Shown here in pieces: positions 49,903 to 53,186 of a stretch of 64,000 bases of DNA. Position 1 is the stretch's first letter. Each line of letters begins with the position of its first letter. The stretch lies in NCBI RefSeq assembly GCF_044647545.1, contig NZ_CP172818.1; one strand, given 5' to 3'. The notes below the pieces were generated by a model. It saw only the letters and a list, made by a program, of their open reading frames with translations. It was not told where the DNA came from and made no database searches. The stretch comes from Escherichia coli (lineage in GTDB: Bacteria > Pseudomonadota > Gammaproteobacteria > Enterobacterales > Enterobacteriaceae). A program made the position numbers and the translations under genes.

Positions 49903-50889
49903 ATGGGTCAACTGATTGACGGCGTCTGGCATGACACCTGGTACGATACCAAATCCACCGGCGGTAAATTTCAACGTTCAGCTTCCGCATTTCGTAACTG
50001 GCTCACTGCCGATGGCGCGCCAGGCCCCACTGGCACAGGCGGTTTTATCGCAGAGAAAGATCGTTATCATCTCTATGTTTCACTCGCCTGCCCGTGGGCG
50101 CACCGCACGCTGATCATGCGTAAGCTCAAAGGACTGGAACCGTTTATTTCCGTTTCCGTAGTGAACCCGCTGATGCTGGAAAACGGCTGGACCTTTGATG
50201 ACAGTTTTCCGGGAGCAACCGGCGACACGCTCTATCAACATGAATTTCTGTATCAGCTTTATCTCCACGCCGATCCACACTACAGCGGACGAGTTACTGT
50301 TCCCGTGCTGTGGGACAAAAAAAACCACACCATCGTCAGCAACGAATCAGCAGAAATCATACGCATGTTCAATACCGCGTTTGATGCGCTGGGCGCGAAA
50401 GCGGGTGATTACTACCCACCAGCCCTGCAAACGAAAATTGACGAACTTAACGGCTGGATTTATGACACTGTTAACAACGGCGTGTATAAAGCTGGTTTTG
50501 CCACCAGCCAGCAAGCTTACGACGAGGCGGTGGCGAAAGTGTTTGAATCGCTGGCGCGACTGGAACAGATTTTAGGTCAGCACCGTTACCTGACCGGCAA
50601 CCAGCTAACCGAAGCCGATATTCGCCTGTGGACCACGCTGGTGCGTTTTGATCCAGTGTATGTGACCCACTTCAAGTGTGATAAGCACCGCATCAGCGAT
50701 TACCTGAATCTGTATGGCTTCCTGCGCGATATCTACCAGATGCCGGGAATTGCCGAAACAGTCAATTTCGATCACATCCGTAATCATTACTTCCGCAGCC
50801 ATAAGACCATCAACCCTACGGGGATTATTTCAATTGGTCCGTGGCAGGATCTCGATGAACCGCATGGACGAGATGTTCGCTTCGGTTAA
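49903..50889 (+). CDS. yqjG: glutathionyl-hydroquinone reductase (Xi-class GST)
   Basis: ORF track 49882..50889; 328 aa from MGQLIDGVWHDTWYD. Confidence 0.85.
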   Translation: MGQLIDGVWHDTWYDTKSTGGKFQRSASAFRNWLTADGAPGPTGTGGFIAEKDRYHLYVSLACPWAHRTLIMRKLKGLEPFISVSVVNPLMLENGWTFDDSFPGATGDTLYQHEFLYQLYLHADPHYSGRVTVPVLWDKKNHTIVSNESAEIIRMFNTAFDALGAKAGDYYPPALQTKIDELNGWIYDTVNNGVYKAGFATSQQAYDEAVAKVFESLARLEQILGQHRYLTGNQLTEADIRLWTTLVRFDPVYVTHFKCDKHRISDYLNLYGFLRDIYQMPGIAETVNFDHIRNHYFRSHKTINPTGIISIGPWQDLDEPHGRDVRFG

Positions 50890-50944
50890 AAAAAGGCACC
50901 TTACGAGGTGCCTCTGATAATTAGCTAAGTGCGTGTTGTTCATG

Positions 50945-51040
50945 TCGGATGCGGCGTAAACGCCTTATCAAACCTACAAAACATTTATATTCAATATGTT
51001 GCAATGACCGCGCAGGCCAGATAAGCGTAGCGCATCTGGC
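50945..51040. repeat. REP elements between yqjG and yhaH
   Basis: gtcggatgcggcgtaaacgccttatc...ggccagataagcgtagcgcatctggc. Confidence 0.5.
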
Positions 51041-51171
51041 AATTTTGCGCTTGCCCTTATCCTTCACAGCGCCTTATTAATTCATCGAGATAATATTTAC
51101 TGCCATTTCATTCACGTCTATTCTTAATTTGCTGCTTTAAAAACAAGTGATTGAGCAAAATTGAGGCAAAA

Positions 51172-51537
51172 ATGGACTGGTATCTGAAAGTACTAAAAAA
51201 TTATGTCGGTTTCCGGGGTCGTGCGCGGCGCAAAGAGTACTGGATGTTTATTCTGGTCAACATCATCTTTACGTTCGTGCTGGGGCTACTGGATAAAATG
51301 TTAGGCTGGCAACGTGCCGGTGGCGAAGGCATCCTGACGACAATCTACGGTATTCTGGTGTTTTTACCATGGTGGGCAGTTCAGTTCCGCCGCCTGCACG
51401 ACACCGACCGCTCGGCGTGGTGGGCACTGCTGTTCTTAATCCCGTTTATCGGCTGGCTTATTATCATCGTCTTTAACTGCCAGGCGGGTACGCCAGGCGA
51501 AAACCGCTTTGGACCTGATCCAAAACTGGAACCTTAA
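51172..51537 (+). CDS. yhaH: DUF805 inner-membrane protein
   Basis: ORF track 51151..51537; 121 aa from MDWYLKVLKNYVGFRGRARRKEYW. Confidence 0.8.
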   Translation: MDWYLKVLKNYVGFRGRARRKEYWMFILVNIIFTFVLGLLDKMLGWQRAGGEGILTTIYGILVFLPWWAVQFRRLHDTDRSAWWALLFLIPFIGWLIIIVFNCQAGTPGENRFGPDPKLEP

Positions 51538-51778
51538 AACAAATCTCCTCGCCGGATGTCTGACTCATCCGGCTTTTATCATCATGTTGATGAATGAATA
51601 ATTTACTAATGTTTATTTAAAATATTTCAATATCGTTATATAAATTACCTATAAAAAATAACCATGTATTTATCTTAAATATCAAAACCTTTATAACATC
51701 CGAAAAAGAAAGATACGAATAGCATTTACACAATACCCGGAATAGACTTTCGTCACTTTTAATTAAAGGGATGTTTTT

Positions 51779-52135
51779 ATGCAGTGGTATTTAGCCGTAT
51801 TAAAAAATTATGTTGGTTTCTCTGGTCGCGCACGTCGTAAAGAGTACTGGATGTTTACTCTGATTAACGCCATCGTCGGCGCTATTATCAATGTCATTCA
51901 ATTGATTTTAGGTTTAGAGTTTCCATTCCTTTCTCTCATTTACCTGGCAGCAACAATCATTCCGGTCATTGCTCTGTGCGTTCGTCGTCTGCACGATACT
52001 GACCGTTCAGGTGCGTGGGCGCTTCTCTATCTGGTACCGGTCATTGGCTGGTTAGTTCTGTTTGTATTTGCCTGTTTAGAAGGCAATTCTGGCAGCAATC
52101 GTTACGGAAACGATCCGAAGTTTAGTTCAAATTAA
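51779..52135 (+). CDS. yhaI: DUF805 inner-membrane protein (paralogue of yhaH)
   Basis: ORF 118 aa MQWYLAVLKNYVGFSGRARRKEYW... clearly paralogous to the upstream gene. Confidence 0.8.
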   Translation: MQWYLAVLKNYVGFSGRARRKEYWMFTLINAIVGAIINVIQLILGLEFPFLSLIYLAATIIPVIALCVRRLHDTDRSGAWALLYLVPVIGWLVLFVFACLEGNSGSNRYGNDPKFSSN

Positions 52136-52185
52136 TCTTAGAATTGGGGCGATATTTCGCCCCTTTTTATTAAAAATAACAAATA

Positions 52186-53082
52186 TTATTTTCCGCTAAA
52201 AAGTTTGGGAATTTCCCGCAGACACCAGGATTTCGCCTCCCCCATACTGTCACGACGCCAGGCCATAATAATATCGATCTCGCTGGTCGATTCCGGGCTG
52301 ACGACACGCAACCGCCCTTCCGCAATATCTTTTTCGACCATCGGATACGGCATCGTCGCCACGCCAAGCCCCGCCAGTAATGCCTGACGTTTATCTTCAA
52401 TCGTGCTCACCGTTAAGCGCGGCTGTTTGTCCAGCAGTTGTACGGTCAATACCGGGCGCTCACGAGCGGTATCCGCCACCGCAATTCCACGATATTTCAC
52501 GCGCGTCACTTCAGATAACGGTTCCGGCTCCTGATGAATCGGGTGATCAGGCGCGGCAACGTAGACGTTCATTAACGTATAGAGCTTGCGCGAGTTGATC
52601 TCCGACGAGGAGCGAAAATGCATATCCGGCGCGATAACAATATCCGCCCGCCCCTGCTCCAGCCGTTCCCACGCCCCTGCCAGCACTTCGGTGATGATTG
52701 CCAGTTGGGTATTGGCTTTTACCGCCAGTTTGTCAATTAACGGGAAAAAGGCAGGTGTCGGTACCAGCGCTTCGGTCACAATGGTGAGATGCGTTTCCCA
52801 ACCGCGCGCGAGAGCTTCCGCATCGGTAGTCAGTTTATCTGCGGCTTCCAGCAAAACGCGCCCTCGCTCCAGCAACATCCTCCCGACATTGGTGAATTTG
52901 GTGCGATGGCCCGAGCGGTCAAACAGCACCACATCCAGCTCTTCTTCCAGTTTTTGCATGGTGTAGCTAAGTGCGGAAGGCACGCGTCCCAGCTCATCCG
53001 CCGCCGCCGCAAAACTGCCCCGGCGATCGATCGCATCCATAACCCGTAGTGCTTCCAGCGTTAATGCCCTTTCTTTGGCCAT
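52186..53082 (-). CDS. yhaJ: LysR-family transcriptional regulator
   Basis: ORF 298 aa with N-terminal HTH. Confidence 0.85.
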   Translation of the reverse strand: MAKERALTLEALRVMDAIDRRGSFAAAADELGRVPSALSYTMQKLEEELDVVLFDRSGHRTKFTNVGRMLLERGRVLLEAADKLTTDAEALARGWETHLTIVTEALVPTPAFFPLIDKLAVKANTQLAIITEVLAGAWERLEQGRADIVIAPDMHFRSSSEINSRKLYTLMNVYVAAPDHPIHQEPEPLSEVTRVKYRGIAVADTARERPVLTVQLLDKQPRLTVSTIEDKRQALLAGLGVATMPYPMVEKDIAEGRLRVVSPESTSEIDIIMAWRRDSMGEAKSWCLREIPKLFSGK

Positions 53083-53186
53083 TTCGTTCTCATTCAGGAA
53101 ATTTGAACATACCGGGCAGAATATCTGGCTAACAATGTAGCGTCCAGCCCCTTACCATAAAAGGAAGTAAAGAGAGGTCAAGAATT

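Follow-up and report, generated by a model that had tools for sequence, protein, structure and literature searches.

Tandem DUF805 genes of Escherichia coli: conserved yhaH and, on a variable and probably silenced cassette, yhaI

yhaH and yhaI lie side by side in Escherichia coli and encode small membrane proteins of the DUF805 family. Analysis of the locus in a stretch of 64,000 nucleotides of E. coli DNA (here called the window) suggests that they are probably two independently transcribed genes of different evolutionary status, with yhaH belonging to the core genome and yhaI residing on a variable, H-NS-silenced cassette. In this model, yhaH is a conserved, vertically inherited gene of the Enterobacteriaceae with its own conserved promoter, 5′ UTR, and intrinsic terminator. 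The 652-bp low-GC cassette that carries yhaI most likely entered E. coli by recombination across the conserved flanking DNA, its donor being another enterobacterium in which the tandem layout already existed; the event is thus read as a gain. The yhaI promoter, the position of which is proposed, would lie within the spacer between the genes and would most likely be held off by H-NS, and yhaI would be turned on by H-NS antagonists or envelope-stress signaling (Ler, CpxR). The gene pair exists as described, is annotated, and belongs to a known family; it does not amount to a new kind of system.

RESULTS AND DISCUSSION

YhaH and YhaI are divergent members of one family

The genes are arranged in the order yqjG-yhaH-yhaI-yhaJ, with yqjG ending at position 50889 (Table 1). 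A TTG-extended version of the yhaH open reading frame (ORF) begins at 51151. YhaH and YhaI aligned over their full lengths by BLASTP, with 63 of 121 residues identical (52%; E = 2e-44). An N-terminal block (M.WYL.VLKNYVGF.GRARRKEYWMF) and a C-terminal block (RRLHDTDRS..WALL.L.P.IGWL..VF.C..G..G.NR.G.DPK) are kept in both, while the center of the alignment is divergent and contains a 4-residue gap. Both proteins matched the Pfam DUF805 profile (PF05656; gathering threshold, 25.7 bits), YhaH with 120.9 bits over profile positions 1 to 111 of 111 and YhaI with 108.9 bits over positions 1 to 110 of 111. NCBIfam profiles gave only sub-threshold matches. The initial annotation had described paralogous small membrane proteins with common terminal blocks and different centers, and these comparisons bear that description out.

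Both proteins also show the traits of the family. Three hydrophobic helices mark each of them as a small membrane protein, and each has the motif Y..F.GR.RR.EYW before the first transmembrane helix (TM1) and RRLHD...S between TM2 and TM3. All residues that were invariant in a 58-sequence DUF805 alignment (Y11, F14, G16, R17, R20, E22, W24, F26, L28, P62, R69, R70, H72, D73, N107, G110, and P113 in YhaI numbering) are retained in both. At the DNA level, the sole real repeat between the two genes is their first 96 nt, which are 78% identical; beyond the N-terminal block, nucleotide identity is 49 to 55%. GC3 is 0.42 in yhaI (GC, 0.434) and 0.61 in yhaH. The genes next to DUF805 ORFs at 80 unrelated loci included no conserved partner gene.

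Table 1 Features of the yhaH-yhaI locus, in window coordinates
Feature	Position	Strand	Description	Basis
Candidate sigma-S-type −10 of yhaH	51116-51128	+	GTCTATTCTTAAT; followed by conserved 5′ UTR to the ATG	Inferred
yhaH	51172-51537	+	121 aa from ATG; DUF805 inner-membrane protein; core gene	ORF and Pfam
Variable cassette	51533-52184	+	652 bp: last yhaH codons, terminator, spacer, and yhaI with its terminator	LF82 alignment, junction sequences
AT-rich spacer with putative yhaI promoter	51538-51778	+	241 bp; GC 0.278	Composition
yhaH intrinsic terminator	51551-51579	+	GCCGGATG-loop-CATCCGGC, then TTTTAT	Terminator scan
CpxR-box-like site	51602-51616	-	ATAAACATTAGTAAA; 1 mismatch to GTAAA-N5-GTAAA	Pattern search (weak evidence)
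Candidate yhaI −10 hexamer	51743-51748	+	TAGACT	Cross-genus alignment
yhaI ribosome-binding site	51765-51771	+	AAAGGGA, 7 nt 5′ of ATG	Read from sequence; region conserved in alignment
yhaI	51779-52135	+	118 aa; DUF805 protein; allele A (not that of K-12)	ORF and Pfam
Mosaic patch, allele A versus K-12 allele B	51914-52087	+	yhaI positions 136-309; encodes TM2, RRLHDTDRS loop, and TM3
Terminator hairpin common to convergent yhaI and yhaJ	52146-52163	.	GGGGCGA-loop-TCGCCCC, with an A-run before and a T-run after	Terminator scan
yhaJ	52186-53082	-	LysR regulator; convergent neighbor	ORF and RefSeq annotation of matching records

yhaI is carried on a variable cassette

The cassette stands in place of a 40-bp terminator segment that is present at the junctions of yhaI-less Escherichia (LF82, Escherichia sp. 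E2562, and E. marmotae), and its right edge is the yhaJ stop codon. The 40-bp terminator of LF82 is very stable, folding with −20 kcal/mol (z = −8.4), and the C terminus of YhaH in that strain reads ...LEQE, versus ...LEP where the cassette is present. A search for terminal direct or inverted repeats at the cassette returned none suggesting a mobile element. yhaI is lacking in E. marmotae, Escherichia sp. E2562 (cryptic clade), and Salmonella, the two Escherichia having the same 40-bp empty site, and it is also lacking in 1,013 E. coli genomes (see below). The initial label of tandem paralogues is thus correct with respect to homology but not with respect to the local duplication that it implied, as yhaI and the spacer form an accessory cassette.

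yhaH has the same gene neighborhood in Salmonella, E. marmotae, the cryptic Escherichia clade, and Citrobacter amalonaticus. Across these genera, YhaH shares 84 to 96% identity with its orthologues, the values being 84% for Salmonella (and likewise for Klebsiella) and 96% for E. marmotae. For YhaI, no relative above 57% identity was found in representative genomes, one for each of 100,044 species; E. coli itself was absent from the matches, and the genome representing this species presumably lacks yhaI. A larger protein search recovered relatives with 60 to 65% identity only in Superficieibacter, Intestinirhabdus, and C. amalonaticus. The equivalent site of C. amalonaticus contains yhaH, a terminator, a spacer with a GC content of 0.295, a yhaI-like gene (59 to 62% identical; GC, 0.456), and yhaJ. 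Superficieibacter has three consecutive DUF805 genes, and the locus of Intestinirhabdus alba contains just a yhaI-like gene. Overall, YhaI is 59 to 65% identical to the products of yhaI-like genes of other genera, 55 to 61% identical to DUF805 proteins of Haemophilus and Exiguobacterium, and 54 to 56% identical to YhaH. A neighbor-joining tree grouped the YhaH proteins in a clade with short branches (90% bootstrap) and placed the YhaI-like proteins on long branches.

These relatives bear on whether the pair could instead be ancient, dating from the ancestor of the Enterobacteriaceae, with yhaI lost repeatedly (in Salmonella, E. marmotae, and part of E. coli). The yhaH-spacer-yhaI-yhaJ layout of C. 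amalonaticus and Superficieibacter, together with the lone yhaI-like gene of I. alba, is consistent with such a history, as is the position of the YhaI-like proteins as sister to the YhaH clade, although support in the tree was weak (34% and 19%). Against repeated loss, a well-formed homologous 40-bp terminator, and no deletion scar, occupies the empty site in each of LF82, E. marmotae, and Escherichia sp. E2562. Since these sites share an intact homologous terminator, absence of yhaI is the simplest ancestral state for Escherichia. We consider an ancient pair with repeated loss possible but doubtful; acquisition of the cassette by E. coli is favored as the probable course, because the empty sites of Escherichia are homologous and intact.

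The window carries a yhaI allele different from that of K-12

The 1.3-kb region is 92.3% identical to that of MG1655, and the window resembles K-12 in the locus, the lengths of yhaH (b3103) and yhaI (b3104), the YhaH protein, the terminators, and the spacer, in which 3 of 241 positions differ, none of them in the candidate elements of Table 1. yhaH differs from its K-12 counterpart at 7 positions, all synonymous (dN = 0). In contrast, yhaI of the window is the other major allele and falls short of near-identity to b3104, with 84% protein and 84.0% nucleotide identity. Seventeen of the 19 amino acid differences lie in TM2 and TM3 and are encoded by a 174-bp mosaic patch. RefSeq gives the name yhaI to allele B only and leaves allele A without a gene name. 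The initial statement that both are annotated K-12 genes therefore applies to YhaH, the protein being identical, and fails for yhaI, which is here a different allele.

Substitutions affect 54 of the 174 nt in the patch (identity, 69%; dS, 1.68; dN, 0.21; transitions/transversions, 24/30), a divergence like that between genes of different genera. On either side, yhaI matches K-12 at 98.5% of its first 135 nt and at 97.8% of its last 45 nt. The patch alters 17 residues, each from one hydrophobic residue to another, and leaves the loop identical. A dN/dS of ~0.12 in the patch and the retention of all family-invariant residues show that yhaI is under purifying selection and is not decaying. The same ratio, combined with saturation of synonymous sites, indicates that the patch is probably old or was imported and is not the outcome of rapid adaptive change.

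Gene conversion was considered as an explanation for the A/B patch and was rejected for yhaH, for an island-borne DUF805 paralogue of E. coli, and for the yhaI-like genes of other genera, all of which are ≤65% identical in the patch. Among 5.8 billion proteins no closer donor was found; the best match not attributable to E. coli was 68% identical, and the best named match was 65% identical. A/B recombinant alleles of yhaI occur.

yhaI is a three-state locus in E. coli

The locus was surveyed in 5,426 complete E. coli genomes, which are a biased set of sequenced strains. The allele A patch was found in 2,291 genomes (42%), the allele B patch in 2,081 (38%), and an empty site, where yhaH is followed directly by yhaJ as in LF82, in 1,013 (19%). 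The cassette is present in ~80% of the genomes, and the totals imply that the A and B counts do not overlap. Each patch haplotype is nearly uniform internally. A strain named ST1193, a B2 lineage, carries allele B, so the states of yhaI do not simply track phylogroup. Far from being fixed in the core genome of E. coli, yhaI is thus a three-state locus, and annotation pipelines already handle its two alleles in different ways. Natural allele swaps and knockouts exist in strain collections and, with the links to phages, Ler, and CpxR described below, provide a cheap experimental entry to a widespread membrane-protein family.

DUF805 proteins and phages

ManYZ and PtsG are inner-membrane host factors for genome entry by phages lambda and HK97, respectively. 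A mouse-gut E. coli (ST345) becomes resistant to phages PhiWec188 and PhiWec190 when it loses yhaH and is sensitive again upon complementation (bioRxiv 10.1101/2024.11.29.626071; PMC12695924). YhaH is thus similar to ManYZ- and PtsG-type factors in that it resides in the inner membrane and is needed for infection by PhiWec188 and PhiWec190 (10.1101/2024.11.29.626071), a likeness at the level of infection, and differs from them in having no known transport function.

Phages themselves carry DUF805 genes. Both proteins of the window matched PHROG 12855, a phage "moron" membrane protein (E = 5e-22 and 7e-27), and the nin region of Stx phages 75/02 and POCJ13 contains an intact DUF805 ORF that lacks an annotation, with 40% identity over 93% of YhaI. 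These phage proteins share the DUF805 domain and all of its motifs with YhaH and YhaI but are phage borne, the PHROG profile is longer (333 positions), and the phage-type gene is rare in E. coli, occurring in 8 of 5,426 genomes. A search of YhaH and YhaI against the PADLOC defense models gave no family match at E ≤ 0.01.

The polymorphism of yhaI could be explained by balancing selection, in which phages or other users of inner-membrane DUF805 proteins keep both alleles as well as presence and absence in the population, and yhaI would serve as a variable substitute or decoy for YhaH. The intermediate frequencies of the three states, the deep divergence of two patch haplotypes that are each nearly uniform, the requirement of two phages for YhaH (10.1101/2024.11.29.626071), and the DUF805 genes of PHROG 12855 and of phages 75/02 and POCJ13 would all fit this explanation. 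However, the saturated dS of 1.68 and the dN/dS of ~0.12 indicate that the segment is old or was imported and evolves under purifying selection, phage-type DUF805 genes are rare and PADLOC gave no match, and the state frequencies come from a biased strain set. We consider balancing selection unlikely. About as unlikely, and offered as speculation, is a fuller scenario in which yhaI, silenced but inducible and polymorphic, would substitute for the conserved phage-entry factor YhaH. Its ancient TM2-TM3 haplotypes and its presence or absence would be maintained by phages or membrane-targeting agents, and phage DUF805 genes would exploit the same interaction, for example, in superinfection exclusion.

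yhaH and yhaI are apparently transcribed and regulated separately

To return to the model of a core gene next to a silenced cassette, each gene has candidate signals of its own. Salmonella, C. amalonaticus, and E. marmotae all retain the element CTATTCTTA upstream of yhaH and the yhaH 5′ UTR (CTTTAAAAACAAGTGATTGA..ATTGAGG), and CTATTCTTA resembles the sigma-S −10 consensus. In Salmonella, YhaH protein increases toward stationary phase, and a yhaH reporter spanning −43 to +45 is repressed by SdsR, an Hfq-dependent sRNA (PMC5137417). The candidate sigma-S-type −10 element fits both the stationary-phase rise and the repression by SdsR. Downstream, the yhaH terminator folds with −15.0 kcal/mol (z = −4.27), and 0 of 200 shuffled sequences folded as well; the hairpin common to yhaI and yhaJ folds with −16.3 kcal/mol (z = −3.65).

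The spacer between the genes had been noted at the outset as very AT-rich, and it is among the most AT-rich segments of the window: its GC content compares with 0.522 for the window as a whole, 0.11% of 241-bp windows are equally AT-rich, and the GC minimum of the 64 kb (0.245, in 241-bp windows) begins at 51571, within it. A consensus sigma-70 scan of positions 50850 to 52300 found 0 sites versus 3.1 expected, so a yhaI promoter can be proposed from the cross-genus alignment only. In that alignment the candidate −10 hexamer is matched with TATATT, TATACT, and TATGTT upstream of yhaI-like genes in three other genera. The region upstream of yhaI is fast evolving, and its footprint across the three genera consists only of a TAnnnT hexamer and the ribosome-binding region. 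Rfam searches in permissive mode gave sub-threshold matches only, all outside the spacer; one naRNA4-like match was rejected as a REP element.

Published expression data differ for the two genes. In MG1655 overproducing CpxR, yhaI was upregulated 3.2-fold on arrays and 40.3-fold by quantitative reverse transcription-PCR (qRT-PCR), while yhaH was upregulated just 1.9-fold (PMC2731931). In enterohemorrhagic E. coli (EHEC), the H-NS antagonist Ler activates yhaI 36-fold, with no effect on yhaH reported (PMC3891560). A strong terminator behind each gene, the 241-bp spacer, and these different responses together argue that yhaH and yhaI are separate transcription units. A single yhaH-yhaI operon, with the spacer merely a long intercistronic region, would agree with the common strand of the two genes and with the listing of "yhaH yhaI yhaJ" as one putative unit by Bury-Mone et al. 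(PMC2731931). We judge it very unlikely, as a strong terminator lies directly 3′ of yhaH, the two genes respond unequally to CpxR (1.9-fold versus 40-fold) and Ler acts on yhaI alone, the reading direction of yhaJ is opposite to theirs, and many genomes have yhaH alone.

The CpxR-box-like site in the spacer belongs to a pattern with 12 matches in the window versus 3.2 expected, and it is not conserved in C. amalonaticus. Given the mismatch in the box and its absence from Citrobacter, the effect of CpxR on yhaI may be indirect. The H-NS high-affinity motif was nondiscriminating, with 74 matches versus 59 expected, and the literature yielded no report of H-NS binding or of a transcription start for yhaI. 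The yhaI cassette nevertheless has the composition associated with xenogeneic silencing, being AT-rich relative to the genome and above all upstream of the gene (GC of 0.278 for the spacer, 0.434 for the gene, and 0.522 for the window). Silencing of yhaI by H-NS through the putative spacer promoter is plausible in view of the 36-fold activation by Ler, the 40-fold rise under CpxR overproduction, and the near identity of the K-12-type spacer; the MG1655 and EHEC strains behind these results both carry the K-12-type allele, and the spacer comparison covered K-12 versus the window. The parallel with known silenced genes lies in the low-GC cassette, the AT-rich upstream region, the patchy distribution, and the 36-fold activation by Ler in EHEC (PMC3891560). 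It is drawn on composition and antagonist response: unlike an island, the cassette holds a single small gene and has no mobility genes or terminal repeats.

A recent tandem duplication inside E. coli followed by divergence is extremely improbable: the genes are adjacent, homologous, and on the same strand, their first 96 nt are 78% identical, and tandem DUF805 genes do recur (80 unrelated loci contain 88 DUF805 ORFs, and Superficieibacter has three consecutive copies), but the two copies are neither mutually closest nor similar in composition, with just 52% protein identity, YhaI no closer to YhaH (54 to 56%) than to the Haemophilus and Exiguobacterium proteins (55 to 61%), 49 to 55% nucleotide identity beyond the N-terminal block, and GC3 values of 0.42 versus 0.61, and yhaI is missing from E. 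marmotae, the cryptic Escherichia clade, and Salmonella while a counterpart of the cassette is found in Citrobacter.

Predicted structure and topology

YhaH is predicted to be a small inner-membrane protein with three transmembrane helices. The distribution of charge, with 8 Lys and Arg residues in the N terminus and the TM2-TM3 loop versus 2 in the remaining loop plus the tail, predicts an N-in/C-out topology. A C-terminal green fluorescent protein (GFP) fusion to YhaH fluoresces at the membrane (PMC3225971), which points to a cytoplasmic C terminus and conflicts with the C-out prediction from charge. An AlphaFold2 model from the yhaH/yhaI locus has helices at residues 20 to 44, 50 to 73, and 78 to 99 (pLDDT 89). 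Our best guess for the role of DUF805 is a structural or scaffolding function in the membrane, the conserved surface being formed by the basic motifs GRARRxEYW and RRLHDxxRS on the same membrane face.

DUF805 paralogues at and beyond the yhaH-yhaI locus

Genes of the DUF805 family were found in several settings beyond the tandem yhaH-yhaI pair. At the yhaH-yhaI locus of Superficieibacter electus there are three such genes in tandem, while the same locus in Intestinirhabdus alba carries a yhaI-like gene only and no yhaH-type gene. Another DUF805 gene, the third to carry an E. coli label, encodes P0120 and lies on an island, flanked by genes for a Wzz-family protein, a regulator of the CaiF/GrlA family, and a phage-type integrase. 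P0120 is 61% identical to YhaI, and its gene had no match in any complete E. coli genome. In K. pneumoniae, a DUF805 gene bearing the name "yhaI" is a species-specific diagnostic target (PMC8864245). This use suggests that lineage-specific, fast-evolving DUF805 paralogues are common across Enterobacteriaceae.

The Stx-converting phages 75/02 and POCJ13 (n = 2) each carry an intact but unannotated DUF805 open reading frame (ORF) of ~124 amino acids that runs antisense to nin-region genes. The product is 40% identical to YhaI, and a census of 5,426 complete E. coli genomes found the gene in only 8.

Locations of the features described (L, other loci compared, each with its own coordinates)
Feature	Location	Strand
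DUF805 ORF, Shigella phage 75/02 Stx	L097:2986-3357 (NC_029120.1 16337-16708)	complement
P0120 gene, island	L092-L094:3001-3360	
DUF805 genes, S. electus	L091:1619-3360	
DUF805 gene, I. alba	L095:3001-3360	
YhaH variant, E. marmotae	L086:2501-2860	
YhaH variant, Salmonella	L088:2501-2857	
REP-like palindromes	window 50920-51070	
naRNA4 match	window 50938-50974	-
IS1, E. coli EC19	L098:500-1197	
1.3-kb query region	window 50890-52190	
Conserved yhaH upstream stretch	window 51116-51171	
CpxR-box-like sequences	window 53157-53181	

Topology and variants of YhaH

With three helices, the positive-inside rule predicts an N-in/C-out orientation for YhaH (window 51172-51537). This prediction conflicts with the membrane fluorescence reported for a C-terminal GFP fusion (PMC3225971). 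In the structural model the third helix is broken at the conserved residues P87 and G90, so this segment may be a helix with a kink or may form a re-entrant hairpin. In one E. marmotae variant of YhaH three residues (QFR) are missing, among them one of the two family-invariant arginines, and one Salmonella variant lacks three TM3 residues; both may be strain-specific in-frame deletions.

Noncoding sequences around yhaH and yhaJ

Upstream of yhaH, a σS-like −10 element and 5′ untranslated region are conserved in four genera, and this stretch is probably the SdsR/Hfq target region known from Salmonella (PMC5137417). The yqjG-yhaH intergenic region also contains REP-like palindromes, and a y-ome review describes yhaH as "surrounded by repeat sites." An Rfam match to naRNA4 in this region was subthreshold (27.6 bits versus a cutoff of 59.5). 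E. coli EC19, a 100% match to the query region, has an IS1 insertion in the yqjG-yhaH intergenic region, on the upstream side of yhaH. Between the divergent yhaJ and yhaK genes are two overlapping CpxR-box-like sequences with one mismatch each.
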